Source of the DNA: Frankiaceae bacterium
GTDB taxonomy: Bacteria; Actinomycetota; Actinomycetes; JAFAQI01
NCBI GenBank assembly: GCA_025929315.1
Contig: JAICMI010000004.1
Location: forward strand, 1-53,250
DNA length: 53,250 nt
Direction: 5' to 3'
Part shown: positions 6,455 through 31,621 of the stretch, piece after piece
Layout of the letters: each line of letters opens with the position of its first letter
How positions within the stretch are numbered: the first letter of the stretch is position 1
The notes under the pieces: model-generated
The model's database searches: none
The model's input: only the letters and a program-made list of their open reading frames with translations
Told to the model about the DNA's origin: nothing
Translations under genes and position numbers: made by a program

Positions 6455-6469
6455 CGGGTGGGCGTCATG

Positions 6470-14135: not shown

Positions 14136-14139
14136 GCGG

Positions 14140-15084: not shown

Positions 15085-15104
15085 CAACGAGGTCCCTTCC
15101 GCTG

Positions 15105-15122: not shown

Positions 15123-15164
15123 TCTCGACATTGTTAGCGTCGCTACACCGGTACGGAGGCCCAG

Positions 15165-15956: not shown

Positions 15957-17640
15957 CCGCGCAGTCGTTGTCGGCAGCGGCGCGGGAGCGAGCGTCGTAT
16001 GTCTCGAGCTCGCGCGCGCCGGCTGGGACGTCGTTGTGCTCGAGCGCGGTCCGGCCTACTCGCGTCACCCGGACAAGCCGTCGCACCGCTTCTCCAACGA
16101 CGAGCTCAAGGCCAACCGCTACTTCGAGATGCCCGACCCGCTGACCGAACCGCGTGCGTTCCGGGCAAGTCCGAGCGACAAGGACACGGTCGGCGAGGTC
16201 AACCAGCTCGCTGCCGTCGTGGGCGGTGGCACGGTGCACTGGGACGCCAAGGTGCCGCGGTTCTGGAACATCGACTTCAAGAAGAAGTCGTTGCTCGGCG
16301 CCTATCCCGGCACCGACGTGTGCGACTGGCCGTTCTCCTACGACGACATCGCGCCGTTCTACAAACGCGTCGAACATCTGCTCGGCGTGCAGGGTCCGGC
16401 CACGCTGCCGTCGGCGCCGACCCTGAAGCACGCTCCGGGCAAGCGCGGTTACGACATGCCGCCCGGGCCGCAGCAGTTCTCGTCGATGACGATCGCGTCA
16501 GGCTGCACGGCGGTCGGCATGCATCCCTATGCCTTCCCGATGGCCGCCAACTCCAGGGAGCACGACGGGCGACCGGCGTGCAACGACTGTGGCCAGTGCA
16601 GTGGCTACGGCTGTCCGAACAATGCGCGCATCGGCGCGCTGGCGGTGCTCGACGAGGCTTGCGAGACCGGTCGCGTGAAGATCCGCCCGCAGACGTTCGC
16701 GCATCGGGTCCGGCTCGACGGACGCAAGGCCAAACGGGTCGAGTGGATCGGACTGGGCGGTCGTCGCGGCAGTGATCGCGCAGATCTCGTCGTACTTGCT
16801 GCTTCTGCCATCGAGACGTCGCGCCTTGCCCTGCTGTCCGATCTGCCCGACCCGCACGACCGCATCGGCCGGGACATGATGTTCCACAACTTCGTCGACG
16901 GCTTCGGCATCTTCCTGGACCGGCGCATGCACGCCTATCGCGGGCGATCGACCACACAGTGCTGTGAGGACCTCGCTGACCCGGACTACCCGGGCATGCG
17001 CGAGGCAGCGCAAGCAGCGGGCCTGCCCTATGTGCGCGGTGGCATCATGGAGCTCGGCGGCTCGCAGGACCCCATCGCCGAAGCCAACATCTATCGCTTC
17101 CTGCTCGAGACGATCCACTCCGCCGACCAGACCGGTCAAGCAACGCCGCCGTTCGGCACCAGGTTCAAGGCGTTGATGCGGTCGAGCCCGCTGCGTGACC
17201 GGCTCGCGGGCGTGTCGATGGTCGGCGAGGACCTGCCCTACGCGACCAACCGCGTTGATCTGGCCGGGGTCAAGGACTACCGCGGTGTCCCCGTCGCGCG
17301 GCTGACCTACTCACCCGGTCAGCATGAGCAGGTGGCGGTGGCGTTCTGCGCCTCGCAGATCACTGCGCTGATGAAGGCAGCCGGTGCGACAGTGTCGGCG
17401 GCGGTGCCGGAGTCGCTCGGCAACATGACGGCAATCCCGCACGGCGCACACATCATGGGCGGGATGCGCATGGGCGCCGACCCCAAGACGAGCGTCACCG
17501 GCAAGCACGGCATGGTGCATCACTTGGACAACGTGCTGGTCGCCGACGGGTCCGTGTTCCCGACGTCCGGTGCTCAGAACCCGACGCTCACGATCATGGC
17601 GACCGCTCTCAGGAACGTGACGGCCCTACTGCACGGCTAG
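15949..17640 (+). CDS. GMC family FAD oxidoreductase (catalytic subunit)
   Basis: VVVGSGAGA, VGGGTVHW, Cys cluster CNDCGQCSGYGCP, AHIMGGMRMG, FPTSGAQNPTLT. Confidence 0.9.
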   Translation: MADRAVVVGSGAGASVVCLELARAGWDVVVLERGPAYSRHPDKPSHRFSNDELKANRYFEMPDPLTEPRAFRASPSDKDTVGEVNQLAAVVGGGTVHWDAKVPRFWNIDFKKKSLLGAYPGTDVCDWPFSYDDIAPFYKRVEHLLGVQGPATLPSAPTLKHAPGKRGYDMPPGPQQFSSMTIASGCTAVGMHPYAFPMAANSREHDGRPACNDCGQCSGYGCPNNARIGALAVLDEACETGRVKIRPQTFAHRVRLDGRKAKRVEWIGLGGRRGSDRADLVVLAASAIETSRLALLSDLPDPHDRIGRDMMFHNFVDGFGIFLDRRMHAYRGRSTTQCCEDLADPDYPGMREAAQAAGLPYVRGGIMELGGSQDPIAEANIYRFLLETIHSADQTGQATPPFGTRFKALMRSSPLRDRLAGVSMVGEDLPYATNRVDLAGVKDYRGVPVARLTYSPGQHEQVAVAFCASQITALMKAAGATVSAAVPESLGNMTAIPHGAHIMGGMRMGADPKTSVTGKHGMVHHLDNVLVADGSVFPTSGAQNPTLTIMATALRNVTALLHG

Positions 17641-18462
17641 GCGGGCTCGGGCGGCGCGAAGATGCGGGCCCTCGCGGTAGGACCGCGGCGCGAGTGCGGT
17701 GCCGGCGCGCAGCGCGCGAACACCCGCCGCAGCCGCGACTCCGGTCAGGGGCGGCGCGACGACGCCGTACATCCGCCGCGCCCACGACGGCAGCAGTCCG
17801 AGCGCAAGTCCCGCACCGGCCGCCCACGCCGGACGGGCCGGGGTCGCCCAGCGGACCCACCGCGGCATGGGTGGGGCGAGGACGTAGCGAGCCAGCTCGC
17901 GCGTGCGCCCGTCGGCGGTGAGGTCGGCACGAATCGTCGCGAAGTAGTCCGCCATCTCCGCGTTCGTGGCGGGCACGGTGTCCGGATCCAGTCCGACGAC
18001 GACCGCCGCGCGCGTCTGCTCGGCGTAGTAGCAGTCGATCTCCTCCGTGCTGAGCCGGCCGCCGGCGCGTTGGTAGGTCGTCAGGAACGACTCCACCTCG
18101 CTGCAGTGCACCCATCGCAGCAACGTCGGGTCGTCCGCTCGGTAGCGCACGCCGGACTCCGGGTCGACGCCCCGCACCTTGCCGTGGATGGCGCGGACGC
18201 GCGCTCCGATCGCGTCGACCTCGGCCGTGCTGCCGAACGACACCACGCCGACGTAGTCGGCCGTCCGGAGCAGCCGGCCCCAGGGATCGGCGCGGAAGTC
18301 GGAGTGGCGCAGCACGCCGGCCATCGCCGCCGGATGCAGTGCCTGGAGCAGCAGCGCCCGCAGTCCGGCGATCCACATCACGGGATCGGCGTGGACGCGC
18401 CACGTGACGCTGTCGGGACCGAACAGACCGGGGTCCGCTTCGGGGCGCGACGTCGTTGTCAT
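17626..18462 (-). CDS. Oxygenase MpaB / DUF2236 family protein
   Basis: GLFGPDSVTWRVHAD, LLLQALHP, Y.ADDP.LL.WVH motifs. Confidence 0.85.
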   Translation of the reverse strand: MTTTSRPEADPGLFGPDSVTWRVHADPVMWIAGLRALLLQALHPAAMAGVLRHSDFRADPWGRLLRTADYVGVVSFGSTAEVDAIGARVRAIHGKVRGVDPESGVRYRADDPTLLRWVHCSEVESFLTTYQRAGGRLSTEEIDCYYAEQTRAAVVVGLDPDTVPATNAEMADYFATIRADLTADGRTRELARYVLAPPMPRWVRWATPARPAWAAGAGLALGLLPSWARRMYGVVAPPLTGVAAAAGVRALRAGTALAPRSYREGPHLRAARARLAVQ

Positions 18463-18473
18463 CTCTGCCAGGG

Positions 18474-18731
18474 TCACACGTCGGCCGGTCGTCTGCTGCG
18501 CAGGGCCATGGCGGTACGACGGGCGAGGACGAGCCAGCACAGGAAGGCGACCGCCGACAGCAGCGCGGGGAGCCAGTGGCCGAGCAAGGTCGAGGCGGCT
18601 ATCGCGCACCCGAATGCAAGAAGATTCGCGACGGCGTCGTAGACCGGCGCCACGAACCGTCGGTTGATGACGTGCGAGACCGCAATCACCAGCCCGCAGG
18701 CGAACGTGACCGAGAGGAGAAAGCTCACCAC
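18474..18731 (-). CDS. Small hypothetical membrane protein (85 aa)
   Basis: Three hydrophobic helices; GAGGGGAG RBS-like sequence before the GTG at 18731; sits in operon position. Confidence 0.55.
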   Translation of the reverse strand: MVSFLLSVTFACGLVIAVSHVINRRFVAPVYDAVANLLAFGCAIAASTLLGHWLPALLSAVAFLCWLVLARRTAMALRSRRPADV

Positions 18732-18747
18732 AGCGGCAAGTCTCCCC

Positions 18748-19983
18748 TCAGGGCTTGATGGCCACCTTGACGGCGCCGCTGTTCGCCTGGTCGGCGATCG
18801 TGCAGAACGCGTCCCGCCACTGATCGAGTGAGAACACGTGGGTGAGCATGGGACTGAGGTCAACGCGGCCGGCAGCAGCCAGTTCGAGGTAGTGCTCCAT
18901 GGCGTGCTTGCGCACGCCGTTGACGGTTTCGATGCCGAACGCGTTGCTGCCGACCCAGCGCAGCTCTTTGAAGTCGAGCGGGCTCCACTCCCAGCGCGCC
19001 GGCGCATGCACGCCCGCCTTGACGATGGTGCCGCGGGTCGTCAGCAGGCGAGCCGAGATCGCGGCCGAGTCGGGCTTGCCCACGGTGTCGTAGGCCACGT
19101 CGACGAAGCCGGGATGACACATCGGCAGGCCCGGCTGGTCGGGATGACGACGCAGCACACCGCCGGACCACTGCGCCAGCGTCTCGAGGACCTCGTCGCC
19201 CGGCTCGTGAGCAGTGACCAGGTGCGCGCCGAGCTCCTTGGCGAGTGCGGCCTGGTGAGGGAAGCGGGCCACGACGGCGACGTCGACGTCTGGATAGAGC
19301 GTGCGGAGGAGCGCCACAGCGCACAGCCCGAGCGAGCCGGCACCCCACACGAGCGCCTTGCCGCCGGGCGGAGGCGGGTTGTGCGTCACGGCGTGCAGCG
19401 ACACCGAGAACGGGTCGGCAAACACAGCCCTGTCATCGGGTACGACGTCCGGCACCCGGTGCAGCATCGACGAGTGCGCCGGGAGCAGCTCGGCGTAGCC
19501 GCCGGTGGCGTCGGCCGCAACACCGGTGTGGATGCCGGCACTGATGTCGCCCGAGGTGAAGCTCCAACACAGGCTCAGGTCGCCAGCTTCGCACGACGGA
19601 CAGACCGGGTCGATGCCGCGCGGTCGGCACGACAGCCACGGGTTGAGGACGACGCGGTCACCCACGTCGAACCCCTCGGCTTGCGGCCCGAGCGAGACGA
19701 CCTCGCCCACCACCTCGTGGCCGAGCACCTGCGGGAACGAGCAGAACGCGATCATCGCGCTGTCCGCGCCGCCCTCACCGAAGTCGAGCAGCACCTGCTT
19801 GGAGTCCGAGCCGCAGATGCCGGTGAGCAACGGTCGGACGACGAGCCAGTCCGGTCGCAGCGGTGCGGCGTCGGGCACGTCACGCAGACCGACCGGCGAG
19901 ACGGCGAGATTGCGCATCAGCGCGGGGGCATCGGCGGGCGCTTTCCAGCCGTCCGGCTCCGTCCCGAAGACGAGCGCCTTCAT
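18748..19983 (-). CDS. Zinc-binding (MDR) alcohol/polyol dehydrogenase
   Basis: GICGSD, LGHE, structural Zn C..C..C..C, GAGSLG. Confidence 0.9.
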   Translation of the reverse strand: MKALVFGTEPDGWKAPADAPALMRNLAVSPVGLRDVPDAAPLRPDWLVVRPLLTGICGSDSKQVLLDFGEGGADSAMIAFCSFPQVLGHEVVGEVVSLGPQAEGFDVGDRVVLNPWLSCRPRGIDPVCPSCEAGDLSLCWSFTSGDISAGIHTGVAADATGGYAELLPAHSSMLHRVPDVVPDDRAVFADPFSVSLHAVTHNPPPPGGKALVWGAGSLGLCAVALLRTLYPDVDVAVVARFPHQAALAKELGAHLVTAHEPGDEVLETLAQWSGGVLRRHPDQPGLPMCHPGFVDVAYDTVGKPDSAAISARLLTTRGTIVKAGVHAPARWEWSPLDFKELRWVGSNAFGIETVNGVRKHAMEHYLELAAAGRVDLSPMLTHVFSLDQWRDAFCTIADQANSGAVKVAIKP

Positions 19984-20027
19984 GTGCGAGACCTCATTTG
20001 CGCCGCCCAAGCTCTGCCGCTTTACTG

Positions 20028-20053
20028 ATCTTCGCGGTTTCTTTTAGATCTTA
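20028..20053. promoter_or_regulatory. Shared motif copy 2 (core TCTAAAAGA on the minus strand, 20040-20048)
   Basis: ATCTTCGCGGTTTCTTTTAGATCTTA lies in the divergent MDR/SDR intergenic region. The core matches the other two copies; the flanks are degenerate. Confidence 0.55.
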
Positions 20054-20075
20054 ACCCTGATAGGAGTTCTCGCCC

Positions 20076-20861
20076 ATGGACGTGCAGGGGGCGACGGTCC
20101 TGCTCACCGGCGCATCGTCCGGCATCGGCGCGGCTACGGCGCGCATGCTCGCCAAGCGCGGAGCGGTGCTCGGGTTGGTCGCGCGACGCAAGGACAGGTT
20201 GGAGGAGGTGCTCGCCGACTGCCGGGGTGACAGCCCGGAATCGCGGATCTGGGCGGTCGACCTGTCCGACCTCGACGCCGCCGAACACGTCGTCCGTGAA
20301 GCCATCGAGCACTTCGGTCACCTCGACGTCCTGCTCAACAACGCCGGTGCGCCCAAGCGCCGCCACGTCCGCGACCTGACGCCCGCCGAGGTCGAGGACA
20401 CGATGCGAATCAACTTCTTCTCGCCGGTGCGGATGATGCTGGCGGCGCTGCCGTCAATGCTGGAGCGCCGTCGCGGCCTGATCGTCAACGTCGGCAGCAT
20501 GGCCGGACGCATCGGGGTGCCGACCGAGTCGGCCTACTCGGCGAGCAAGTTCGCCATCGGCGGATGGAGCGAGGCATGCGCCCTCGACCTTGCCGGGTCG
20601 GGCGTCGACATCCGGCTGATCTCGCCGGGCGCATTTGCCACCGAGATCTGGGACCAGCCCGGCAGTGACGACGCGTTCTACGACGGGCCGATGGCGCCAC
20701 CGGAGGAGTGCGCAGAAGCAATCCTCGCGGCCATCGAAGGTGAGACGTTCGAGACCTACGCGCCGGCCGGCTATCGCGACATCGTCGTCGACAAGACACG
20801 CGACTTCGACCAGTTCAAGTCCATGGTGCTGAGCCACTCGGATGCAGGAGCGACATCGTGA
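20076..20861 (+). CDS. SDR family oxidoreductase
   Basis: TGASSGIG, NNAG, YSASK; AGGAG RBS. Confidence 0.9.
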   Translation: MDVQGATVLLTGASSGIGAATARMLAKRGAVLGLVARRKDRLEEVLADCRGDSPESRIWAVDLSDLDAAEHVVREAIEHFGHLDVLLNNAGAPKRRHVRDLTPAEVEDTMRINFFSPVRMMLAALPSMLERRRGLIVNVGSMAGRIGVPTESAYSASKFAIGGWSEACALDLAGSGVDIRLISPGAFATEIWDQPGSDDAFYDGPMAPPEECAEAILAAIEGETFETYAPAGYRDIVVDKTRDFDQFKSMVLSHSDAGATS

Positions 20862-21493
20862 GCATGCACGACGAGGTTCTTGCCGCAGCAAAGGACATGC
20901 TGCGGCTCAACCTCACCGCAGGAACCAGCGGCAACGTGTCCGGGCGACTCGAGGACGGCTCGGTCGTCATCACGCCGTCGTCGATCGACTACGAGACGAT
21001 GACGCTGGCCGACCTCGTCGTACTCGATGCGTCGGGCGAGGTCATCGAAGGAACCCGTTCGCCGTCGAGCGAAAAGCTCGTGCACATCGCCTGCTACAAG
21101 CGTTTTCCGGAAGTCCAGTCGGTCATCCACGCGCATCCGGTCTATGCGTCGATGTTCGCGGTCGCGCGCCAACCGATCCCGTCGGCGATCGACGAGTTCG
21201 CCGTCTACGTCGGCGGTGACGTGCCGGTCGCGGACTACGCGATGACCGGTTCGTCAGAGCTCGGCGAGAACGCGGCCGACTGTCTCGTTGATGTCGGCTC
21301 GGCACTCCTCGCCAACCACGGCACGGTGACGGTGAGCGACTCGCCGGAACGCGCGATCCACCAGCTCGGCGTTGTCGAACGCGCAGCACAGATCGTGTGG
21401 GGTGCGCGCATCCTCGGCGGCGACGCCGAGTTGCCCTCGTCGACCAACGAGACCCTTGGCGGCTACTACCGAATGATGCGCAAGCCCTCGTGA
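20858..21493 (+). CDS. fucA: Class II aldolase (L-fuculose-phosphate aldolase-like; resembles M. tuberculosis Rv0727c)
   Basis: GTSGNVS, ITPSS, PSSEKLVH, IHAHP and LLANHG Zn ligands. Confidence 0.85.
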   Translation: MSMHDEVLAAAKDMLRLNLTAGTSGNVSGRLEDGSVVITPSSIDYETMTLADLVVLDASGEVIEGTRSPSSEKLVHIACYKRFPEVQSVIHAHPVYASMFAVARQPIPSAIDEFAVYVGGDVPVADYAMTGSSELGENAADCLVDVGSALLANHGTVTVSDSPERAIHQLGVVERAAQIVWGARILGGDAELPSSTNETLGGYYRMMRKPS

Positions 21494-22812
21494 CTGCGGC
21501 ATCCGACCAGATCACGGTCGGCGTCGACATCGGGACCACGTCGGTCAAGGCCGTCGCGGTGAACGCAGCCGGCGAAGTCGTTGCCCGCACGCGGGTGCCG
21601 CACAAGATCCAGGCAACGAGCGACCGGCTTCGACACGATGCCGATCAGGCCTGGCGCCGCGGGCCGCGTCGTGCATTGAAAGCCCTCGGCGGTCTAGCGC
21701 CGAAGGCGCTCAGCGTCACGGGCATGGTGCCGTCGATGGCGGCGGTGGATCGTCGCGGCAAACCGACAACGGACGGGCTGCTCTACGGCGACGCCGAGGG
21801 CCGACCCGCCGATCGCCACGGAATGCCGGATCTCGTCGGGGACGCCCCGGAGTTCCTGCGTGCACTCGTGCGCATGGCCCCGGAAGCCGCCGGCTACTGG
21901 TCGGCGCAGACGACGGCGACCGTCGCTCTCGGTGGGCCGCCTGTCCTCGCCGGCGACGTCGCGATGGTGTTGTGGCCGCTGTCAACCGGTGAGGCCTGGG
22001 ACCAGTCGGTGCTCGACGAATGTGGCGTCTCGGTCGACCAGGTGCCGCAGATCGTGCCGAGCCGTACGCCGGTCGCCGACGTCGACGGAATGCTGCTCGA
22101 CGGTGGCGCGATCGACGTTGCCTGCGAGCGGATCATCTCCGGCATCGAGGACGGCGACGCGCTCGTCATCTGCGGCAGCACGCTGATCGTCATGGCAGCT
22201 TTGCCGCCGGGGGCGACGCCTCCGGCGGAGATCATCGCCTACCCCGACGAGACCGGGGCGCAGACCGCGACTGCTGCCAGCAACGCCGGCGGATTGTTCC
22301 TCAACTGGGTGGATCGGACGACCGTGAAGTCGCGGGGTCCCGTCGACCCCGAGCAGGTGCCGGTCTGGCTGCCCTACATCCGCGGCGAGCGAACGCCGTG
22401 GAACGACCCGAACCGGCGCGCTGTCCTGGCTGACGTCCACCAGGGTCACGACGCCGCGGCAGTTCGACGGGGCGCGTTCGAGGCGAGCGCGTTCGTCGCG
22501 CGCCACTTGCTCGAGATGATGGATCTGTCGCCGAGACGCATCGTCGCGCTCGGTGGCGGCACTCAGGTCGACGGCTGGATGCAGGCACTCGCGGACGCGC
22601 TTTGCGCGCCGGTCGATGCAGCGACGGATCCCGAGACCGGCGCCATCGGCGCCGCGTTCTGTGCGCGTCTCACCGCCGGCCTCGAAGGCGACCTGCGCGA
22701 CGGTGCCCGGTGGGCGCGCTCCGCTCGACGCTTCGAGCCGAACGCCGACTGGACCGACCCGGTGAAGCGCCGCTACACCAGATTCCGCGAGCTCGCTCAG
22801 CAAGGTCGTTAG
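21490..22812 (+). CDS. FGGY-family carbohydrate kinase (resembles Rv0729 XylB)
   Basis: GVDIGTTSVK, LPYIRGERTP, GGGTQ..GWMQ. GTGA overlap with the aldolase. Confidence 0.85.
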   Translation: MTAASDQITVGVDIGTTSVKAVAVNAAGEVVARTRVPHKIQATSDRLRHDADQAWRRGPRRALKALGGLAPKALSVTGMVPSMAAVDRRGKPTTDGLLYGDAEGRPADRHGMPDLVGDAPEFLRALVRMAPEAAGYWSAQTTATVALGGPPVLAGDVAMVLWPLSTGEAWDQSVLDECGVSVDQVPQIVPSRTPVADVDGMLLDGGAIDVACERIISGIEDGDALVICGSTLIVMAALPPGATPPAEIIAYPDETGAQTATAASNAGGLFLNWVDRTTVKSRGPVDPEQVPVWLPYIRGERTPWNDPNRRAVLADVHQGHDAAAVRRGAFEASAFVARHLLEMMDLSPRRIVALGGGTQVDGWMQALADALCAPVDAATDPETGAIGAAFCARLTAGLEGDLRDGARWARSARRFEPNADWTDPVKRRYTRFRELAQQGR

Positions 22813-24299
22813 GCCGCGAAGCACCAGATGCCGGTGGCTTGGGGCGGCACGCGCGAGGACTGGTCGAAGTAGGTGCCGGTGCCGAACACGATGTTCTGGC
22901 CCGAGATGGCGACTCCGCCGGACGCGGCGGCGGCAACGGGCACGTGCCAGACCAGCAGGCCGTCCGTCGCGTCGTAAGCGTTGACGGCGAACTCCGTCGT
23001 GTCGGAGGCGAAGACGATGCCGCCGGCGACCGTGACCGGCGCGTAGGACGGCGCCTGCGCGGGCTGGTTCCACACGACGGCGCCGGTGACCAGATCGACG
23101 GCGTGCAGCGACGTGAGTCGTTCCGGGTCTGTGGTGGTGCCGGCCCCGCCATCGGGAGAGGCGGGGATGGCGCTGTCCCCGTAGAGCACTGGATGGTGTG
23201 AGGTCGGATCGGTTGCGACGGCGACCGATCCGATGAAGCCTCCGACGCTCGAGCCGACGGCGGCTTGCACGCTGCGTACGAGCCGGCCGTTGTCACGATC
23301 GATGGCGTAGACCCAGCCGGACTTGCCGGCTTGTACGGCGACGTCCTTGCCGCCGACCTCGGTGAGAACGACCGACGCGCCGAAGTCGTTGTCCTGACCA
23401 TGGTTGGCGGCAGGCTCGTGGAACGTCCAGACGGGTCGGCCGTCCGTGGCGCGCAGCGCCCATACGCGTTGCGTGTCCCTGCCCGACTGAAGGTTGCAGT
23501 TGCCCCCACCGAAGAAGAGCATCTGCCGCCGGGGGTCCAACGCAGGCGAGCTCCAGATGTCACCGCACGCCGTTTCCGGGTGCGAGCGTCTGCCCAGGTT
23601 GTGCACGACCTCGTCTTTTTCGGCGTCGTACTTCCAGCGCAGTGCGCCGGTGCGCGCGTCGATGGCGAGCATGCCACCGTCCGCGGAGTGGGGGTCCTCG
23701 TTGGAGTCCATCCCGACGAACACGACCGGATCGCGACCGTGTCCGCGGTTCCAGACCACGGGCGAGGACTCGACCTCGGTCGTGCTGGCGGGGTGCGACG
23801 GGTCGGCGTCGACGGCCCAGCGGGCGCGGCCGTTGTCAGCGTCGACCGCGTAGACCGTGCCACCTGCCGCGAAGACCACCGTCGGGCCCAGGGAGGGCAC
23901 CTCGACCGCACTCGCCGAGGCAGTGATGCGGCCATAGGAGACGTCGTGCCGGTCGACGTGCTCCGGGTTGTGGCCGGTATCGAACGTCCACGTGTCCTTG
24001 CCGGTGGCCATGTCGACCGCATGCATCCTGCCGGTGCCGTCACCGACGAAGGCGTGGCCCCAGGCAATGGCGGGTTCTGCGGTGACGGCGCCGTCCGTCT
24101 GAAGGAACCAGCGCGGCTGGAGCTTGGCGGCGCCGAGCGCCGTGAGGCTGCTGCACGTGGCATCGGCTGTTCGTGCTGGGTCGTGCTGGAACATCGGCCA
24201 GTCGGTGTTGCACGGAGCGGCGGCGTGTGTGACCGCCGGACTCACGACCGTCATCGCGGCGAGCGAGAGCCCGGCCCCGAGCAACGTCGCGCGCCGCAT
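22809..24299 (-). CDS. Secreted PQQ-binding-like beta-propeller (PVA-dehydrogenase-like, no haem domain)
   Basis: Signal peptide MRRATLLG; DWPMFQHD; repeated A.D..TG...W docking motifs; IWSSPALD; DNDFGAS. Confidence 0.8.
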   Translation of the reverse strand: MRRATLLGAGLSLAAMTVVSPAVTHAAAPCNTDWPMFQHDPARTADATCSSLTALGAAKLQPRWFLQTDGAVTAEPAIAWGHAFVGDGTGRMHAVDMATGKDTWTFDTGHNPEHVDRHDVSYGRITASASAVEVPSLGPTVVFAAGGTVYAVDADNGRARWAVDADPSHPASTTEVESSPVVWNRGHGRDPVVFVGMDSNEDPHSADGGMLAIDARTGALRWKYDAEKDEVVHNLGRRSHPETACGDIWSSPALDPRRQMLFFGGGNCNLQSGRDTQRVWALRATDGRPVWTFHEPAANHGQDNDFGASVVLTEVGGKDVAVQAGKSGWVYAIDRDNGRLVRSVQAAVGSSVGGFIGSVAVATDPTSHHPVLYGDSAIPASPDGGAGTTTDPERLTSLHAVDLVTGAVVWNQPAQAPSYAPVTVAGGIVFASDTTEFAVNAYDATDGLLVWHVPVAAAASGGVAISGQNIVFGTGTYFDQSSRVPPQATGIWCFAA

Positions 24300-24334
24300 G
24301 CGACAACGTTCGCCGCCGGCGGGCGGGGACCTGC

Positions 24335-25312
24335 CTAGCCGAGCACCTCGGGGTTGATGCAGTTGTTGGGCTTGTCGCCGGTCAAGATCGCGGCGATGCC
24401 GTCGGCCATCTGCTGCGCGTGGTTGGCCTCGACGTTGTAGGTCGCGCCGCCGATGTGCGGGGTGAGCACCACGTTGGGCAGCTGCGCCAGCGCTGAGTCG
24501 GGCGCGAGGACCTCACCGTCGAAGTGGTCAAGTCCTGCGCTCGCGAGATGCCCCGACCTCAGGGCGTCGACAAGTGCATCGACGTCGTGCAGCGCCGCCC
24601 GCGCCGCGTTGAGATAGATCGCGCCTTCTTTCATCTGCGCGAACTGCTTCTCGCTCATCATCTTCATCGTCTCGGGGACGACCGGGGCGTGCATCGACAC
24701 CACATCGGCCTCGGCCAGGAGGTCGTCGAGGGCGTAGGTCGCGTCGTCCGCGTAGGGGTCGTAGGCGATGACCCGCATGCCGAGCCCCTCGAGCCTCCAG
24801 GCAAGTGCGCGGCCGATCGCGCCGTACCCGACGATCCCCGCGGTGCGGCCGTTGACCTCCCAGCCGCGGAAGCGCTGATAGGGGATCGTGCCGTCGCGAT
24901 AGGTCTCACCGGCGCGGACGTCGTCGTCGGCGGGGACGATGTGACGGGCTGCTGCGAAGAGCAGACCGACCGTCAGCTCGGCGACCGCGTCGGCGTTGCG
25001 ACCGGGCGCGTGGAGCACCGGGATGCCCCGCTCGGTCGCCGCCGGCACGTCGACGTTGGTGGGGTCGCCCCGGGTCGCGCCGATGACGACCGGCTTGAGG
25101 TCAAGGGTGGCCGGGCCGACCCGGTCGCCCTCGCAGATCACGATCGTGGCGCCCTCGGCCTGCACTCGCTCCGCAAGCTGTTCGTCGTTGTAGAGCCGCA
25201 GCGGCTTCTGCTCGATGAAGGGCTCGTAGACGATGTCCGCAAGCTCTTTGAGCGCGTCAAAACCCGGTCCCCGCATGGGCGCGAGCACCAGCGCCCTCTG
25301 TTCCCTGCTCAT
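24335..25312 (-). CDS. D-2-hydroxyacid dehydrogenase (resembles Rv0728c SerA2)
   Basis: TRGDPTNVDV, PGRNADAVAE, GYGAIG, LNAAR, LTPHIGG. No ACT domain. Confidence 0.9.
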   Translation of the reverse strand: MSREQRALVLAPMRGPGFDALKELADIVYEPFIEQKPLRLYNDEQLAERVQAEGATIVICEGDRVGPATLDLKPVVIGATRGDPTNVDVPAATERGIPVLHAPGRNADAVAELTVGLLFAAARHIVPADDDVRAGETYRDGTIPYQRFRGWEVNGRTAGIVGYGAIGRALAWRLEGLGMRVIAYDPYADDATYALDDLLAEADVVSMHAPVVPETMKMMSEKQFAQMKEGAIYLNAARAALHDVDALVDALRSGHLASAGLDHFDGEVLAPDSALAQLPNVVLTPHIGGATYNVEANHAQQMADGIAAILTGDKPNNCINPEVLG

Positions 25313-25335
25313 CTTCTAAAAGATAGTATGGACGG
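25312..25335. promoter_or_regulatory. Shared motif copy 3 plus two overlapping leaderless divergent promoters
   Basis: ATCTTCTAAAAGAT has 5-bp arms. On plus, TAGTAT lies 6 nt before GTG 25336. On minus, TATCTT lies 7 nt before ATG 25312. Confidence 0.75.
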
Positions 25336-26853
25336 GTGAAAGAGCTCATCTACGCCCGGCTCTTCCTGCCGGCCGCGGAGCGGCACGCGCAACGAGCGGC
25401 CATCCACGACGGCACCTACTCGGCGACGTTCGGCGAGCACGCCACCCGCGCGCTGCAGCTGACCGACGCGCTCGGCTCCGGTCTCGGGCTCAGCCGCGAG
25501 GACCGGTTCGCGGTCGTCGCTCTCAACGGTCACCGCTACCTCGAGCTCTACCACGCCGCCTTCCTCGGCGGCGCCGTCATCAACCCCGTCAACTACCGCC
25601 TCGCCGACCGCGAGACCGCCCACGTCCTCAAGCACTCCGGCGCCCGAGTCGTGTTCGTCGACGCTGCTTTCGCCGAGCGGGTGCAGGCGATCGTCGACTC
25701 GGGCGAGACATCCGTCGAGCGGGTCGTGTCACTCGACGACGACTACGAGGATCTGCTCGCTTCTGGCAACGACGTCGTGCCGGCCGAGCCGGACGAAGAG
25801 TCGCTGCCGATGTTGATGTACACCGGCGGCACCACCGGCATGCCCAAGGGCGTCGCGAGCACGCAGCGCGCGCAGATGCTCAACCTCTACCACCTCGCAA
25901 TGGTGCAGGGACTTGCCTTCAACGAAGAAGCGGTCTACCTGCACCACATGCCGATGTTCCACTCGATGGGCGCCAACGCTGCACTCTCGGCGGCTGCGTT
26001 CGGCACCGAGGCAACTGTCATTCCGGCGTTCGAGCCGGGCGCGTTCATGACCGCGGTCGCGAAGCACGGCGTCACCGAGACGGTGCTCGTGCCGACGATG
26101 ATCGCGATGATCCTGCGGCATCCCGACTACGCGCCGGATCGGCTGAGCAGCCTCAAGCGCATCGGCTACGGCGGCATGGCGATGCCACATGCGCTGCTGG
26201 CCAAGCTGCAGGAGTCGTCGCCCGACATCCAGCTGCTGCAGGGCTACGGCATGACGGAGGCGTGCCCGACGCTGACGTTCCTGACGGCCGAGGATCACCT
26301 GCGCGGCGAGGACAAGCGGCACTCCGTCGGACGGCCGCTGCCCGGTGTCGATGTCGCGATCTTCGACGGCGACGGCAACAGGCTTGCCACCGGTGAGGTC
26401 GGCGAGGTCTGCGCGCGCGGCGGCAACATCATGACCGGCTACTGGGAAAACCCCGAAGCGACAGCCAAGGTGTTCCGTGACGGCTGGTATCGCACCGGCG
26501 ACCTCGGCAAGTTCGACGCCGACGGCTACCTCTACCTCGTCGACCGTGTGGACGACATGATCGTGACCGGTGGAGAGAACGTCTACTCGATCGAGGTCGA
26601 GAACGCACTGACCACCTATCCAGGCGTCGTGCAGGTTGCCGTTGTCGGCGTGCCCGACGAGGTCTGGGGCCAACGCGTGCACGGCATCGTCGTCCTCGCT
26701 CCCGACGCTGCCGGTACGACGGAAGAACAGCTCGCCGAGCACGCGCGGAAGTCGATCGCCGGCTACAAGGTCCCCAAGACGTGGGAGCTGCGCACCGAAC
26801 CGCTTCCGGTGTCCGGCGCGGGCAAGCCGCTCAAGCGCGAACTCCGCTCCTAG
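25336..26853 (+). CDS. Long-chain acyl-CoA synthetase
   Basis: YTGGTTGMPKG, GYGMTE, YRTGDLG, TGGENVYSIEVE and AGKPLK motifs. Confidence 0.92.
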   Translation: MKELIYARLFLPAAERHAQRAAIHDGTYSATFGEHATRALQLTDALGSGLGLSREDRFAVVALNGHRYLELYHAAFLGGAVINPVNYRLADRETAHVLKHSGARVVFVDAAFAERVQAIVDSGETSVERVVSLDDDYEDLLASGNDVVPAEPDEESLPMLMYTGGTTGMPKGVASTQRAQMLNLYHLAMVQGLAFNEEAVYLHHMPMFHSMGANAALSAAAFGTEATVIPAFEPGAFMTAVAKHGVTETVLVPTMIAMILRHPDYAPDRLSSLKRIGYGGMAMPHALLAKLQESSPDIQLLQGYGMTEACPTLTFLTAEDHLRGEDKRHSVGRPLPGVDVAIFDGDGNRLATGEVGEVCARGGNIMTGYWENPEATAKVFRDGWYRTGDLGKFDADGYLYLVDRVDDMIVTGGENVYSIEVENALTTYPGVVQVAVVGVPDEVWGQRVHGIVVLAPDAAGTTEEQLAEHARKSIAGYKVPKTWELRTEPLPVSGAGKPLKRELRS

Positions 26854-26855
26854 CA

Positions 26856-27983
26856 ATGGACTTTGCGCTCGACGAGCACCACCAGGCCTGGGTCAAGGAG
26901 GTCCGCGAGTTCCTGCGCGCCGAGTTCGACGTCGAAGCCGAGGAAGAGTCACGTCGACGTGGTGGTGAGGCGAGCGGCCCGGTGCTGCGCAAGTTCCGCG
27001 CCAAGATGGCGAAGCGCGGCTGGCTCGCCCTGACCTGGCCGGTCGGCTACGGCGGCTCCGGCCGGACCACGTTCGAGCAGTTCCTGCTCATGGACGAGTT
27101 CGCCTACTGGGGTGCGCCCGCCATCGACCTGACGGCGAGTGCGGTGGCGCCGACCATCATGCGGTTCGGCACCGACGCGCAGAAGAAGCGCTGGCTGCCC
27201 GCCATCTTGTCCGGCGAGGTGGAGTGCGCGATCGGCTACTCCGAACCTGATGCCGGCAGCGACCTCGCGTCCCTGCGCACGAGCGCTCGTCGCGACGGCG
27301 ATGTGTGGGTGGTCAACGGCGAAAAGCTCTGGAACACGGGAGCCGAGTTCGCCACGCATGAGTGGCTGGTCGTGCGCACGGACCCGGATGCGCCAAAGCA
27401 CAAAGGCTTGTCGGTGGTCATGGTGCCGATCGACGCGCCGGGTGTGACCGTGCAGCCGATCGTCACCTGGGGTGGGATCCGCACCAACGCGGTGCACTTC
27501 GAAGATGTCCGTGTCGATGCCGACGCATTGATCGGCGCCGAGAACGACGGCTGGCGTTACGTCACGACCGCGCTCGACTTCGAACGGGTGTCGATCGGCG
27601 TCACCGGCGGGCTGCGCCGCTTGTACGACGAGACGCTGCGCACGATCACGTCGTACGAAGTGGATGTCCGGCATGGGCTCGCTGAGCTGTCCGTCAAGAT
27701 CGAGAACGCGCGGCTGCTCAACTACCGCGCCGCCTGGATGGTCGACCAGGGGCTCATGCCCAACGCGGAAGCGTCGATGACAAAGGTCGTGACGACCGAG
27801 CTGCAGGCGTCGTTGTCAGCCGCGGTGCTGGAGCTGGTCGACCCGACGTCGTTCGCCGCTGAGCTGGCGCGGCACCTGTACCGGCAGGCGCCCTACCTGC
27901 GTTTCGGTGGCGGCACCAACGAGATCCAGCGCGACATCATCGCCCAGCGCGGCCTAGGCCTTCCGCGAGGCGCGTCCCGGTAG
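26856..27983 (+). CDS. Acyl-CoA dehydrogenase, catalytic subunit (FadE26/FadE29-like)
   Basis: GYSEPDAGSDLASL, NGEKLW, LDFER, FGGGTNEIQRDIIA. Confidence 0.88.
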   Translation: MDFALDEHHQAWVKEVREFLRAEFDVEAEEESRRRGGEASGPVLRKFRAKMAKRGWLALTWPVGYGGSGRTTFEQFLLMDEFAYWGAPAIDLTASAVAPTIMRFGTDAQKKRWLPAILSGEVECAIGYSEPDAGSDLASLRTSARRDGDVWVVNGEKLWNTGAEFATHEWLVVRTDPDAPKHKGLSVVMVPIDAPGVTVQPIVTWGGIRTNAVHFEDVRVDADALIGAENDGWRYVTTALDFERVSIGVTGGLRRLYDETLRTITSYEVDVRHGLAELSVKIENARLLNYRAAWMVDQGLMPNAEASMTKVVTTELQASLSAAVLELVDPTSFAAELARHLYRQAPYLRFGGGTNEIQRDIIAQRGLGLPRGASR

Positions 27984-27999
27984 AACGAGCGGCCCGACT

Positions 28000-28071
28000 C
28001 GTGATCTTGACGTTGGCGACGGTCTACGCGCGTGATCTCGACGTTCTAACGCCGAAAACGTCAAGATCACG
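28000..28071. repeat. 72-bp element with 15-bp perfect terminal inverted repeats and an internal near-copy (REP/MITE-like)
   Basis: CGTGATCTTGACGTT (28000-28014) and AACGTCAAGATCACG (28057-28071); internal CGTGATCTCGACGTT (28031-28045). Lies between convergent genes. Confidence 0.8.
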
Positions 28072-28083
28072 GGGCGTGACTTG

Positions 28084-29742
28084 TTAGCCGGTGGCGAGGT
28101 GGAAGGCTTGGATGCCGGACGCCGGCTGGAGCGGGTCGACCGCGTGACCGAACGCCTTGTACTCCAGGTCCGTCTCGCGCGTTCCTGAACCGACCACGAC
28201 GGTCGAACCGTCGACGACCGCCGTCGATGATGGCGGACCGAGCACCGGTGACTGCCACAGCGGCAGGCCCGTCCTCGTGTCGATGGCGATCACCGAGAAC
28301 GTCGTGGTGTCCGGGATGAACGCGACACCGTTGACGATCGACGTGTGCGCGTAGGACGGGCCCGCGAGTCGATAGGTCCAGTCGATGTGACAGGTCGCCG
28401 GGTCGAAGCCGCGCACCGAGACGGTGCTGTCGACGGCCTGGCCCGCTGAGTGCGGCACGGGGATGGCGGTGGTCCCGACGACCTGCACCTTGCCGCCCGG
28501 GAACGTCTCGACGGCAGGTGTCCCGAGGAAGCCACCGATCCCGAAGCCGCTCTGCAGGCCGCCTTCTTGCCCGACGTGGCAGACACTCACGTTGGCGCCG
28601 GTCATCTCGTCGCGGACGTAGTAGTCACCGCTCTTGCGTCCTTCGCCGACGACAGTGCGGCCGTTCAACGTGAAGATGTTGGGCGAGGCACCGAAGTCTG
28701 CGTCGCGATCAGCGTCGGCGATCTGGGCCTTCGGCGTCGCCAGAGCGTCGGCGGGCCGGAAACGCCACCGCAACCGGCCAGTGGTCGCATCCAGCGCAAC
28801 CATGCTCTCGGCGTAGTTCTCATGTGCGGCGTAGGCCTTGTCGGCGTATGAGCAGCTCGCCGTGCCAAACGCGACCACGTCGCGGGCGGCGTCGACAGCC
28901 GGGGACGACCAGACGCCGCCGCATCCCCAGCCCTGACCGGAGCCGATCGTCAGGCCGCGCTCGCCGGTGTAGGTGTCACCGGTCTCGACGTCGTACTTCC
29001 ACAACGGTTTGAAGTGCCACTGCTTGGCGCCCGGCTCGAGCCGAACCGCGATCAGTCCGGTGCGACCGACGTGCGGGTCGTTGTGCACATCGATGCCGAC
29101 GTAGATGCGGCGCACACCGTCGGTCGTCGCGACCGCCGGCGACGACTCCACCTCGGCGACCGGAGCCGCGTCGCTGCTGTCCTGCTGCTTCTGCAGCGCG
29201 GGAGTGCGTGGATCGAGGTCGATCGTGGCGAGCTCCTTGCCGGTCTTGGCGTCCAGCGCCCAGAGGCTCGACCCGCCACCGAACAGCACCACCTGCCGTT
29301 CGCGGCCACTGGCCGGGTCGCGGTAGGGCTCGATCGTCGCGCTGGACACGATGCGGCCGAACGCGGTTCGGGCGTGACTGCTGATCGCGAACGTCCAGCG
29401 CACGGCACCGGTAGCGATGTCGATCGCGTAGAAGGTGCCGTCCCAGGACCCGACGTAGGCCGTCCCGGCGGCGATGGCCGGTGAAGCGGTGATCGAGTCA
29501 GGGGTGTGCATCACCCACGCCGGCACCAGTGTCGACGCCGTCGTCGCGTCGATGGGTGAGCAGCCTGCTCCAACGTTGAAGCTGTGTACGACGCCGGCGC
29601 CGAACGATCGCCAATCCGGACTCGCGCACTTCTGGCCGGCGCCGGGAGTCGCGACGGCACACGTCGCGCCGACCAACGAAGCGGTAGCAACAACAGCCCC
29701 GACGAGACGTCGCCGAGACACGCCGAGTGGCCTGCCGGCCAC
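28084..29742 (-). CDS. Secreted (Tat-like SRRRL) PQQ-binding-like beta-propeller, paralog of 22809..24299
   Basis: DWRSFG, GSWDG, VESSPAV, GGVWSSPAVD, DADFGASP. GTG start overlaps the upstream TAG. Confidence 0.8.
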   Translation of the reverse strand: MAGRPLGVSRRRLVGAVVATASLVGATCAVATPGAGQKCASPDWRSFGAGVVHSFNVGAGCSPIDATTASTLVPAWVMHTPDSITASPAIAAGTAYVGSWDGTFYAIDIATGAVRWTFAISSHARTAFGRIVSSATIEPYRDPASGRERQVVLFGGGSSLWALDAKTGKELATIDLDPRTPALQKQQDSSDAAPVAEVESSPAVATTDGVRRIYVGIDVHNDPHVGRTGLIAVRLEPGAKQWHFKPLWKYDVETGDTYTGERGLTIGSGQGWGCGGVWSSPAVDAARDVVAFGTASCSYADKAYAAHENYAESMVALDATTGRLRWRFRPADALATPKAQIADADRDADFGASPNIFTLNGRTVVGEGRKSGDYYVRDEMTGANVSVCHVGQEGGLQSGFGIGGFLGTPAVETFPGGKVQVVGTTAIPVPHSAGQAVDSTVSVRGFDPATCHIDWTYRLAGPSYAHTSIVNGVAFIPDTTTFSVIAIDTRTGLPLWQSPVLGPPSSTAVVDGSTVVVGSGTRETDLEYKAFGHAVDPLQPASGIQAFHLATG

Positions 29743-30719
29743 TAGCAGCCGGTCTGAAGGACGAGCTGGCCCGACTTGTTGGTGATCGGCGACGCCGGGA
29801 ACGGTGGGGCCACGCCACCACCCGCGACGAAACCACACGTGCCGACGTAGATCGCCGGAAGCGGATAGGGACCCTCCGGTGACCCCTGCGGGTCCGGGTC
29901 CTCGTAGATCTGCAGGCCGGGCTCGACGTAGGTCGTCTGGTTGTGCTTGTGCCACCACGCCATGCTGTGACCGCCGCAGTCCTTGGTCGTGTCGGACGGG
30001 CCGGCGCACGACGGCGGGTCCCAGGTGTGGCCGTCGTAGTTGGCCGCGTCACGCGTCTTGGCGTGCTTGTCGCCGGCCTGGTAGGCCACGCGGCGTTGTG
30101 ACTGTGCGGAGAAGCACAAGCCGTCGGCGCAGGCTCCGAAGCCGGCGTCGGCGCCGGGCAGCGGGTGGGTGAGGAAGAACTGAGTGTCACCGCCGGCGAC
30201 CTGGGTCAGCCAGTCGACTGCGGACAGCGGCGTCACGTTCGCGACGATCGCTCCGCCGTCACTCGGGCCGTTGGAGATCTGCTCGGAGCCGTCGTGCTCA
30301 CCGCTGTCGAGGTTGTCGTCGGCGCCGAAGTAGGCGTGCAGCTCGCCGCTCTGCGGGTCGATCGGCGTGCCCTTCTGGTCGGGCAGCGGGGTGAAACCAT
30401 TCTTGTCGACGCGGGCGCACTTGGCGGTGCCGGTGAAGTCGAGGCAGATCACGACCGCGTTGGCGCTGGTGCCGTCGGGCGTCTGCGGAACCCCGACGAC
30501 CACGTAGCGGTGGTCCTTGCCGGCGATCTGGAAGGTCGCGGCGTAGCACCCGTCTTCGGTGTACTGCGGGTGAGCGCTGTCGTCGGCGCTGGTGCTGCAG
30601 CCCTGCTTGGTCGTGTCGTAACCACCGCCACTGACCGCGAGCGCGGGCACGCTCGCCGCGGCGAGGACTGCCAGCAGCGAGGGGATGACGATCGTGCGCG
30701 GACGAGTGCGGAGCTTCAC
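29742..30719 (-). CDS. Secreted Cys-rich hypothetical protein
   Basis: Signal peptide ending VPALA; GAGGAG RBS before GTG; translationally coupled to the propeller gene. No family recognised. Confidence 0.7.
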   Translation of the reverse strand: MKLRTRPRTIVIPSLLAVLAAASVPALAVSGGGYDTTKQGCSTSADDSAHPQYTEDGCYAATFQIAGKDHRYVVVGVPQTPDGTSANAVVICLDFTGTAKCARVDKNGFTPLPDQKGTPIDPQSGELHAYFGADDNLDSGEHDGSEQISNGPSDGGAIVANVTPLSAVDWLTQVAGGDTQFFLTHPLPGADAGFGACADGLCFSAQSQRRVAYQAGDKHAKTRDAANYDGHTWDPPSCAGPSDTTKDCGGHSMAWWHKHNQTTYVEPGLQIYEDPDPQGSPEGPYPLPAIYVGTCGFVAGGGVAPPFPASPITNKSGQLVLQTGC

Positions 30720-30937
30720 GGGGACTCCTCGCTGGCGGCCTGCTGGGCGCAGGTCTCCGGAGCGATTCGACGGGCGCCCGGAGAGTCCTGCTTTAGGCCA
30801 ATCTTTCAAACTTTTTCCAATAAGACAACAGTCCTCTGCGCCCAGTGAAACCGGGTTCTCCGGAAGTGATGCGATAGTGTTCTGCCACTGCATGTGAGGT
30901 TCTCTTTTGCCCAGCGCAGGCCGAGAGGGTGCGCGAG

Positions 30938-31621
30938 ATGACACAGCCGACCGGACTGTCTGCTCCGGACGCCGTCGCCAGCTGGCGCGAGCGGGCCGTC
31001 GAGAGGTCACTGCGCACCGCCCGAGCCAAGGCCATGTCCCGCAGCGACCGGTTCATCGAGGTCGCGATGGAGCTGCTGAGCGAGACCGGCCGCACCGACT
31101 TCACGGTGCAGGAGCTGGTCGAGCGGTCCAAGACCTCGCTGCGCTCCTTCTACCAGCACTTCGGCAGCAAGGACGAGCTGCTGCTGGCCTTGTTCGAAGA
31201 GGTCATCCGCATGTCGTCGGAGGACTGGCGGCGACTGGTCAAGGCACAGGACAACTGCGTCGCCGGGCTCGAGGCGCTCGTCCTGACCATGTATGCGCAG
31301 GCGATCGACCAGACGATGGGTGGCGTCAGTCGCGCGCTGACCTCTTACCACTTGCAGCTGGCCGAGTCGCGGCCGAGCGACTACGCGCGGGTCCTCGCAC
31401 CGATGCAGGACCTGATCCTCGAGCTGGTCGAAGCCGGGGTGCGCGAAGGCAAGTTCCGCGACGACATCGACGCCGAGACTCTCGCGATGATCCTCATGCA
31501 GACACTCGTCGCGGCCGCCCACATGCATGCGCTCGGCGCCTACCTGACCGGCGGCCCACTCGACGGCGAGCGGTTGTGGGCGTTCTGTCTTGGTGGGCTC
31601 ACCGCTACGAGGAAGTCGTGA
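30938..31621 (+). CDS. TetR/AcrR family regulator
   Basis: HTH FTVQELVERSKTSLRSFYQHFGSKDELL. Confidence 0.92.
   Translation: MTQPTGLSAPDAVASWRERAVERSLRTARAKAMSRSDRFIEVAMELLSETGRTDFTVQELVERSKTSLRSFYQHFGSKDELLLALFEEVIRMSSEDWRRLVKAQDNCVAGLEALVLTMYAQAIDQTMGGVSRALTSYHLQLAESRPSDYARVLAPMQDLILELVEAGVREGKFRDDIDAETLAMILMQTLVAAAHMHALGAYLTGGPLDGERLWAFCLGGLTATRKS

Follow-up and report, generated by a model that had tools for sequence, protein, structure and literature searches.

In the dihydroxyacetone phosphate (DHAP) shunt (DrdK/MtnK, DrdI/MtnA, DrdA/Ald2), a FucA-like class II aldolase cleaves 5-substituted D-ribulose-1-phosphates to DHAP and an aldehyde. The IolC-IolJ branch of myo-inositol degradation phosphorylates a 5-keto-aldonate and splits it to DHAP and a C3 acid semialdehyde, and the Pseudomonas 2-ketogluconate route (Gad flavoprotein, KguK and KguD) applies an exported dehydrogenase of the GMC/gamma-subunit type, a cytosolic kinase and a reductase of the D-2-hydroxyacid dehydrogenase family to one sugar acid. 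A dehydrogenase, a 2-keto-aldonate reductase, a kinase and a class II aldolase-family enzyme act together on C4-C6 sugar acids, whereby the Ltn3D/LtnD-OtnI-3OtnK-3OtnC route yields either DHAP or a pentulose phosphate and the 2-keto-aldonate reductase is encoded in the cluster (PMC12994016). Here we describe a group of five genes, encoding a Zn-dependent alcohol/polyol dehydrogenase (Zn-ADH), a classical short-chain dehydrogenase/reductase (SDR), a class II aldolase-family Zn enzyme, an FGGY kinase and a D-isomer-specific 2-hydroxyacid dehydrogenase (HADH), at positions 18748-27983 of a 53,250-nucleotide stretch of DNA (the window), which is one contig (JAICMI010000004.1) of a soil metagenome-assembled genome (MAG) of a Frankiaceae bacterium. 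We consider it probable, although by no means assured, that the five enzymes form a cytosolic, soluble, Actinomycetota-wide module, in which a small polar polyol or keto-sugar (acid) would be phosphorylated and cleaved to DHAP and a short fragment. The MAG (labeled G000; 2.65 Mb assembly, 68% complete, 68% G+C) has relatives that are themselves MAGs deposited as 'Frankiaceae' or 'Mycobacteriales bacterium'.

Enzyme classes were assigned by Pfam and NCBIfam, which bore out all those proposed for 18748-27983 by an initial annotation: the eight genes of this stretch are real, albeit the annotation had omitted the PQQ-like protein and had given no role to the HADH. Because of gene overlaps and short gaps, the stretch divides into four transcription units, namely ZnADH-MpaB (minus strand), SDR-aldolase-kinase (plus), HADH-PQQ (minus) and FadD-ACAD (plus; ACAD stands for acyl-CoA dehydrogenase). 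The first unit starts with the Zn-ADH (18748-20010, minus strand, likely start ATG 19983; Pfam ADH_N and ADH_zinc_N), and the second with the SDR (20076-20861, plus strand; Pfam adh_short, 185 bits), followed by the Rv0727c/FucA-like Zn enzyme (20858-21493, plus strand; PF00596, 162 bits) and by a short, divergent Rv0729/XylB-like kinase of 440 amino acids (21490-22812, plus strand, real start GTG 21490; Pfam FGGY_N and FGGY_C). The SDR stop and the aldolase start overlap in ATGA, the aldolase stop and the kinase GTG 21490 in GTGA, and these three genes are translationally coupled. The Rv0728c/SerA2-like HADH (24335-25312, minus strand; Pfam 2-Hacid_dh_C, PF02826, 179 bits) is divergent from the FadD gene with a gap of 23 bp, and the ACAD ATG at 26856 starts 3 nt after the FadD stop. 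No hydrophobic segment was present in any of the five module proteins, which are thus predicted to be soluble and cytosolic, while export signals are carried by a gluconate-2-dehydrogenase-subunit-3-like (G2DH3) protein and by both PQQ-like proteins of the window.

The conservation of the module was followed by tblastn of the window proteins against family relatives, 20 phylum loci and 80 named loci from GTDB species genomes, and the gene neighborhoods were reconstructed from GC3 gene calls together with tblastn. In a count over 97 related loci, made with a coverage filter, the aldolase gene was accompanied by the HADH in 87, by the FGGY kinase in at least 69 and by the Zn-ADH in 31 loci, so that the grouping of the five genes exceeds chance. 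In the window itself the HADH, kinase and aldolase genes all lie within 4.5 kb. A trio with the FGGY gene on the minus strand and the HADH and aldolase genes on the plus strand was nearly universal among the 80 loci (Mycobacterium, Acidimicrobiales and others), and in about 30 of them, mostly Mycobacterium, the Zn-ADH (65-69% identity) and the SDR (53-57%) were encoded 0.1-6 kb downstream; Zn-ADH orthologs of this identity adjoin the trio in about 24 Mycobacterium-like loci, and the SDR orthologs are paired with the Zn-ADH in Mycobacterium. An independent lineage, Acidimicrobiia of another family, possesses an HADH-FGGY-aldolase operon with a different FGGY subfamily. A search for longer or fused forms of the aldolase produced only one unrelated protein of 433 amino acids, and an open frame of 1108 amino acids (locus L045), considered as a fusion, was rejected, being three separate genes.

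The locus of M. paraense has the order SecY, LCM methyltransferases, GNAT, the trio, Zn-ADH/SDR, further LCM methyltransferases and S49 peptidase. We take this to be also the gene order of M. tuberculosis Rv0724-Rv0732, where fucA, serA2 and xylB would correspond to Rv0727c, Rv0728c and Rv0729, respectively. By synteny, the kinase/HADH/aldolase core of the window is the counterpart of the M. tuberculosis xylB-serA2-fucA genes (Rv0729-Rv0727c). A literature search found no function for Rv0727c, Rv0728c or Rv0729, and nothing relevant on clusters of an FGGY kinase, a class II aldolase and a hydroxyacid dehydrogenase.

The structures nearest to the Zn enzyme are those of FucA (114 bits for a search with the sequence alone, 195 bits for one with the A1 profile), and its identity is about 31% to E. 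coli FucA and 27% to E. coli YgbL. Residues E72, H91, H93 and H154, invariant in 12 family members, align with Glu73 and His92/His94/His155 of E. coli FucA; the fourth metal ligand is thus Glu, as in FucA, and not Asp, as in AraD, and the Asn and Ser residues of the FucA phosphate site are kept as well. The window protein is 53-55% identical to its Mycobacterium orthologs, which reached 440-465 bits with the Rv0727c-type model NF004527 (PRK05874), while it scored 244 bits itself, below the cut-off of 308. It also stayed below the cut-offs of the FucA equivalog model TIGR01086 (104 against 400 bits), the AraD model TIGR00760 (95 against 389) and the OtnC model (91 against 250), and matched an NCBIfam 4-epimerase subfamily with 155 bits. 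Judged by its active-site residues, the window 'aldolase' is not a canonical FucA, because the catalytic Tyr113, which in FucA comes from the neighboring subunit and is followed by Met, is replaced in the whole family by an invariant Asp-Glu pair (D112-E113). An equation of family Asp112 with AraD Asp120 was dropped, since the alignment puts Asp120 four residues further on. The position of FucA Phe131 is occupied by Thr or Ser. Neither fucose isomerase nor fuculokinase nor a permease was found among the window genes.

The kinase belongs to the FGGY family, with two actin-like ATPase domains, the catalytic Asp and the ATP motifs; D13, T16-T17, D209 and G355-G357 are invariant among its homologs. 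Its AlphaFold2 model (pLDDT 89.5) superimposes on glycerol, xylulose and gluconate kinases with a TM score of about 0.8, albeit at no more than 22% identity to solved kinases, and predicts a compact, canonical FGGY fold without an extra domain, smaller than other FGGY kinases. The score with the XylB model TIGR01312 was 118 bits against a cut-off of 380, and the substrate loop reads G-M-V-P-S (with M79-P81-S82 invariant in the family) where XylB has G-Q-M-H-G. The nearest solved relative, 3IFR, is uncharacterised, and the homologs bear automatic names only ('xylulokinase', 'FGGY-family carbohydrate kinase'). The nearest solved relatives of the Zn-ADH, at about 70 bits, are RspB, a ketose reductase and the xylitol, sorbitol, arabinitol and idonate dehydrogenases, which places it in the polyol dehydrogenase subfamily. 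The HADH has the NAD domain, and its Arg, Glu and His align with those of the Pyrococcus glyoxylate reductase; its nearest structures (about 165 bits) are glyoxylate reductase, glycerate dehydrogenase and phosphoglycerate dehydrogenase. It is an obligatory partner of the module, and because a D-2-hydroxyacid dehydrogenase is universally linked, a small fragment bearing a carboxylate may be expected among the intermediates.

A small polar substrate is favored because the module is conserved alone, the HADH is obligatory, the proteins are soluble, and the relatives and the carriers are of small-molecule types. In the first step, the Zn-ADH, the SDR or both would convert a small polar polyol or sugar acid into a keto compound, in the family of this MAG possibly after extracellular oxidation by a Tat-exported GMC flavoprotein. 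The FGGY kinase would then phosphorylate the terminal CH2OH adjacent to the keto function, and the Zn enzyme would break the C3-C4 bond to give DHAP and a C2-C3 oxo or hydroxy-acid fragment, which the HADH would interconvert (glyoxylate/glycolate, or the hydroxypyruvate/tartronate semialdehyde/glycerate type). The FadD-ACAD genes (25336-27983) and a second SDR with a small ACAD (13092-15108) would form a separate unit of the beta-oxidation type, which in this lineage was placed under the same promoter motif.

This motif is a 9-mer, TCTAAAAGA, which occurs three times in the window (15108, 20040 and 25315), once in each divergent promoter gap, against 0.01 expected, and has only four sites in the whole 2.65-Mb assembly. 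The copy between the Zn-ADH and the SDR occupies 20040-20048 on the minus strand, and the other two are parts of longer 18-mers on the plus strand: TCTTCTAAAAGATAGTAT at 25312-25329 in the HADH/FadD gap, overlapping a -10-like TAGTAT 6 bp before the FadD GTG, and TCTTCTAAAAGATAATAT at 15105-15122 in the gap between the divergent SDR(14140)-ACADsmall and G2DH3-GMC units. Both 18-mers fit the pattern TCTTCTAAAAGATARTAT and differ only at the R position, with no such match expected by shuffling. Among the close relatives, the 18-mer at 25312-25329 is conserved before FadD in L057, the one at 15105-15122 is identical in L056, and a related word, TTTCTTCTAGATCTTAG, precedes the SDR in both.

The fourth copy of the 9-mer in this genome, TCTAAAAGATAA, lies at 6619 on contig C145 (L136), upstream of 5137-6570 (minus strand), where it precedes a Liv-type ATP-binding cassette (ABC) importer consisting of a Peripla_BP_6 binding protein, permease and ATPase. 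The importer is adjoined by an amidohydrolase_2, an SDR, a fused ACAD, a second class II aldolase-like gene and a CoA-transferase III.

Outside this MAG, 37 of 85 loci have a palindrome, TGACAC-N4-GTCA, within 160 bp upstream of the HADH gene, and these sites make up 37 of the 53 that occur in 1.63 Mb; the Mycobacterium form of the palindrome is GTGACACGGGCGTCAC. It stands before the serA2-like HADH gene or the first gene of the operon from Mycobacterium to Acidimicrobiales (e.g., L134:8955, L066:7439, L009:11420), and probably serves as the operator through which a regulator controls the Rv0727c-29-type trio. In three sister genera (G011, G002 and G014) the palindrome regulon comprises 11, 6 and 2 sites, with about zero in the controls, and covers the trio, (EamA-)G2DH3-GMC-ZnADH operons, one of them led by an EamA permease, the Hsd4A-like SDR-FadD genes, ACAD pairs, P450s and a DUF35/amidohydrolase pair. 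As these sites cover the same genes, the functional set clustered in the window is co-regulated elsewhere in the family, and the co-regulation of the module with beta-oxidation-type genes is real in this MAG and its family, the ancestral operator in this MAG having been swapped for the new motif while the same gene set was clustered. In Mycobacterium the genome-wide frequency of the palindrome 14-mer was not above that of the control, and a second site in genome G295 adjoins no module gene. A palindrome TTGACGTCGGTGTCAA is located at 35559-35574 of the window, between the gene of a xanthine-dehydrogenase-type large subunit (minus strand) and an amidohydrolase_2-TetR operon (plus strand); from its likeness to the family palindrome, a single copy of the ancestral operator may have been retained in this MAG.

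Several observations weigh against the small-substrate route. The substrate loop of the kinase is unlike that of every characterised FGGY kinase, and neither a sugar-type regulator nor a sugar ABC or phosphotransferase-system transporter was found beside the module in Mycobacterium. The invariant Asp-Glu at the position of FucA Tyr113 leaves aldol cleavage as an assumption. Furthermore, the module is co-regulated in the family, and embedded in G000 and L057, among FadD, Hsd4A-like SDR, heteromeric ACADs and P450s, and an unrelated Acidimicrobiales locus has a CoA-transferase, an aldehyde dehydrogenase (ALDH), a P450 and an ACAD beside the module, for which reason a product entering CoA metabolism would fit.

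Since Tyr113 is missing, a reaction other than aldol cleavage has to be considered, although we think it unlikely: the Zn enzyme might be an OtnC-like beta-keto-acid decarboxylase or an AraD-like epimerase with a phosphorylated keto sugar acid or pentulose as its substrate, and the pathway would then feed the pentose-phosphate route. The invariant Asp-Glu pair and the matches to the 4-epimerase subfamily and OtnC point in this direction, and the set of Zn-ADH, SDR and 'xylulokinase' mirrors pentitol pathways. The combination of an SDR, a HADH of the 2-keto-aldonate-reductase type, a kinase and a Zn enzyme likewise mirrors Ltn3D/3OtnK/3OtnC (PMC12994016). However, the metal ligand is that of FucA and not that of AraD, the scores are far under the OtnC and AraD cut-offs with FucA models and structures as the best matches, and the kinase is of the FGGY and not the DUF1537 family.

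The link to the beta-oxidation-type genes could also mean that the two sets of enzymes degrade the two halves of one amphiphile such as a glycolipid, an acylated sugar acid or a polyol ester. Once this was oxidized or hydrolyzed outside the cell, its polar head would pass as a small soluble compound to the five-enzyme module and its acyl part to FadD, the heteromeric ACAD and the Hsd4A-like SDR, a scheme which we regard as rather improbable. The co-regulation of sugar-type and beta-oxidation-type units in G000 and the sister genera, the presence of exported GMC/Tat and PQQ-like proteins in the same units and the ability of the module to work alone in other taxa would agree with such a division of labor, but neither an esterase nor a glycosidase was found in the motif-controlled units of the window. 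Moreover, the palindrome sites of G011 and G002 (L138, L139, L010) also lie at adenylate cyclases, a cNMP-binding protein and a response regulator; because signaling genes belong to the regulon, a cAMP-type global regulator is suggested rather than a single substrate-specific pathway, and the shared regulon may be explained in this way.

The initial annotation had gone further and proposed that the dehydrogenase, kinase and aldolase remove the polyol tail of a lipid. Its order of reactions, with ketose formation followed by terminal phosphorylation by the FGGY kinase and release of DHAP by the class II aldolase, is the most natural reading of translationally coupled genes and is retained here, and its connection to FadD and ACAD gained regulatory backing in this lineage, where three of the four genome-wide 9-mer sites lie in three divergent promoters of the 15-25 kb region; the lipid or hopanepolyol substrate is not supported. 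According to this proposal, a lipid with a terminal polyol (bacteriohopanetetrol (BHT), alkyl-tetrols or a phytosphingosine-like compound) would be oxidized at the penultimate carbon, phosphorylated at the terminus and cleaved to DHAP and a lipid aldehyde, which would then pass to ALDH, FadD and the heteromeric ACAD. The side chain of BHT is a 5-substituted 5-deoxy-D-ribitol, and owing to this ribitol-derived chain its keto-phosphate would be an analogue of D-ribulose-1-phosphate, the configuration cleaved by FucA-type enzymes. Oxidation at C34, phosphorylation at C35 and FucA-type cleavage would give DHAP and a C32 hopanoid aldehyde for FadD, the heteromeric ACAD and the Hsd4A-like SDR, a sequence of events to which we assign a very small chance. 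The chemistry is coherent and stereochemically sensible, the Thr/Ser at the Phe131 position would widen the aldehyde site, and the organism lives in soil; in G000 both FadD-ACAD and SDR-ACADsmall have promoter words in common with the module, in L057 the Zn-ADH gene is immediately followed by that of the small ACAD, and throughout the family FadD, ACAD pairs, P450s and a DUF35 protein share the palindrome of the trio. Nevertheless, Mycobacterium and Acidimicrobiia, including about 45 Mycobacterium-like loci, conserve the module in the absence of lipid genes, and the frequency of nearby ACAD and FadD is that of the background. The lipid route also gives no role to the HADH, whose gene has the closest linkage to that of the aldolase, and would require soluble sugar-type enzymes, among them a kinase smaller than other FGGY kinases and without an added domain, to handle a membrane triterpenoid. 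Every characterised relative acts on polar C2-C7 substrates. The motif-linked transporters are of the Liv-type ABC and EamA small-solute types and not Mce/MmpL, and the ALDH at 9105 is under a different operator. A squalene-hopene cyclase match was also missing from the 68%-complete G000, which is a weak point, as an organism degrading hopanoids of foreign origin could do without the cyclase. A literature search found no enzymology of hopanepolyol side-chain degradation. Taken together, a lipid polyol is a highly improbable substrate.

The background density of the beta-oxidation-type genes was estimated within 10 kb of the module, where ACAD-like genes occurred at 0.9-1.4 and FadD-like genes at 0.3-1.1 per 100 kb, compared to about 1.0 each over the whole G000 genome; their density near the module is thus that of the genome background, and the trio locus of M. 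paraense contained neither. The FadD-type acyl-CoA ligase of the window (25336-26853, plus strand; Pfam AMP-binding, 261 bits; NF004837, 460 bits) and the ACAD behind it (26856-27983, plus strand; Pfam ACAD N, M and C domains; best NCBIfam match the PimC large subunit, 177 bits) are co-regulated neighbors outside the conserved module. True orthologs of the window FadD genes were found only in the close relative L057 (67%), and elsewhere there were only paralogs of about 30% at background density. The ACAD is the probable large partner of a split pair with the small ACAD subunit (13092-14174, minus strand; best match IpdE2, 94 bits), which is encoded together with the Hsd4A-like SDR (14140-15108, minus strand; NF005861, 372 bits against a cut-off of 373). 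These small IpdE2-like and large PimC-like ACAD genes are separated by 12.7 kb, and a copy of the 18-mer precedes each of them; in the relatives L009 and L010 small and large ACAD pairs are adjacent.

Divergently from the small ACAD unit, the G2DH3-like Tat protein and a GMC flavoprotein are encoded at 15138-17640 (plus strand; PF13618, GMC_oxred_N and GMC_oxred_C, RR signal). In the sister genera G002 and G014 the G2DH3, GMC and Zn-ADH genes form one operon behind the family palindrome, and G2DH3-GMC is probably an extracytoplasmic sugar or polyol oxidase linked to the Zn-ADH. The PQQ-like beta-propeller with an N-terminal signal peptide (22809-24299, minus strand; Pfam PQQ_2 and PQQ) is co-transcribed downstream of the HADH and is a lineage-specific insertion, absent at the corresponding position in L057. 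A second secreted PQQ-like paralog is located in 28084-31052, followed by an orphan protein without a Pfam match, whose homolog (37%) in G011 (L140) stands at a palindrome site, ahead of an ADP-forming acyl-CoA synthetase; genes similar to this second paralog were present at a distance of 2-4 kb from the HADH gene in three loci of Acidimicrobiia (L039, L041 and L044). The ACAD and the second PQQ-like gene converge, and in the space between them, at 27990-28075, there is a perfect inverted repeat of 14 nt (GTGATCTTGACGTT ... AACGTCAAGATCAC) with an inner partial copy, which exceeds an ordinary terminator stem in length.

Four further genes on which the initial annotation had relied are real and present in the window, but lie outside 18748-27983: the ALDH (9105-10670, plus strand), the MpaB/Lcp-family protein (17626-18747, minus strand), the methylmalonyl-CoA-mutase family protein, i.e., the B12 mutase of the annotation (45324-47027, plus strand), and the P450 (47432-48721, plus strand). 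The MpaB/Lcp-family gene is a recent insertion outside the conserved set; it is absent at the corresponding position in the close relatives L056 and L057.

At least 10 studies yielded soil metagenomes in which the stretch is present in nearly intact form. Contigs about 97% alike, covering all units, were also present in two rhizosphere RNA libraries, which may include DNA; this is a weak hint of expression and does not permit a ranking of the genes. The trio spans organisms from the relatives of M. tuberculosis to soil Acidimicrobiia, with no function assigned in the literature searched, and is now placed in a module of five genes that has a conserved operator of its own, an obligatory HADH and a 'FucA' lacking the canonical catalytic tyrosine. 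By these properties the search is narrowed to the chemistry of a phosphorylated keto-sugar (acid), which gives concrete assays for a long-unannotated locus of M. tuberculosis. The module is also a case of regulatory rewiring, in that in one soil family it shares a regulon with beta-oxidation-type genes. C32 hopanoic acids are a common natural product seen in soils and sediments, and the hopanoid reading, if true, would provide the first enzymology of hopanoid side-chain breakdown together with a biological source of these acids, and would matter for geochemistry; nothing found here favors it over ordinary small-molecule chemistry, and its prospects are accordingly remote.

Compared with the described systems, the module is closest to Rv0727c-Rv0728c-Rv0729 of M. 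tuberculosis in having the same three families, which in the Mycobacterium loci stand in the same divergent arrangement, with NF004527 scores above the cut-off and a conserved palindrome upstream of serA2. In contrast, the order is rearranged in the window, with SDR-aldolase-kinase on one strand and HADH-PQQ on the other, the Zn-ADH and SDR are attached, a new motif replaces the ancestral palindrome, and beta-oxidation genes flank the set. With the E. coli FucK, FucA and FucO the window shares the succession of an FGGY kinase and a FucA-like Zn enzyme, with conserved Zn ligands, Glu73 and phosphate-site residues; it differs from this L-fucose/D-arabinose route by the absence of an isomerase, a permease and FucO, by the exchanges of Tyr113 to Asp and Phe131 to Thr/Ser, by a kinase scoring only 35 bits with the fuculokinase model and by the D-2-hydroxyacid dehydrogenase that is always attached.

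The resemblance to Ltn3D/LtnD-OtnI-3OtnK-3OtnC (PMC12994016; ygbJKLM in E. coli) consists in the formation of a keto sugar acid, the terminal phosphate and a C-C step by an enzyme of the class II aldolase family, whereas the window has an FGGY kinase instead of DUF1537, a Zn enzyme with 91 bits against the OtnC cut-off of 250, and no OtnI. The likeness to the IolC-IolJ and 2-ketogluconate routes is one of scheme; their kinases (PfkB) and aldolases (FBA-type) belong to different families. The DHAP shunt for 5-deoxyribose and methylthioribose, finally, is the nearest precedent for the chemistry of the lipid proposal on a 5-substituted ribitol chain, but its kinase and isomerase families differ from those of the window, and its substrates are small and soluble.

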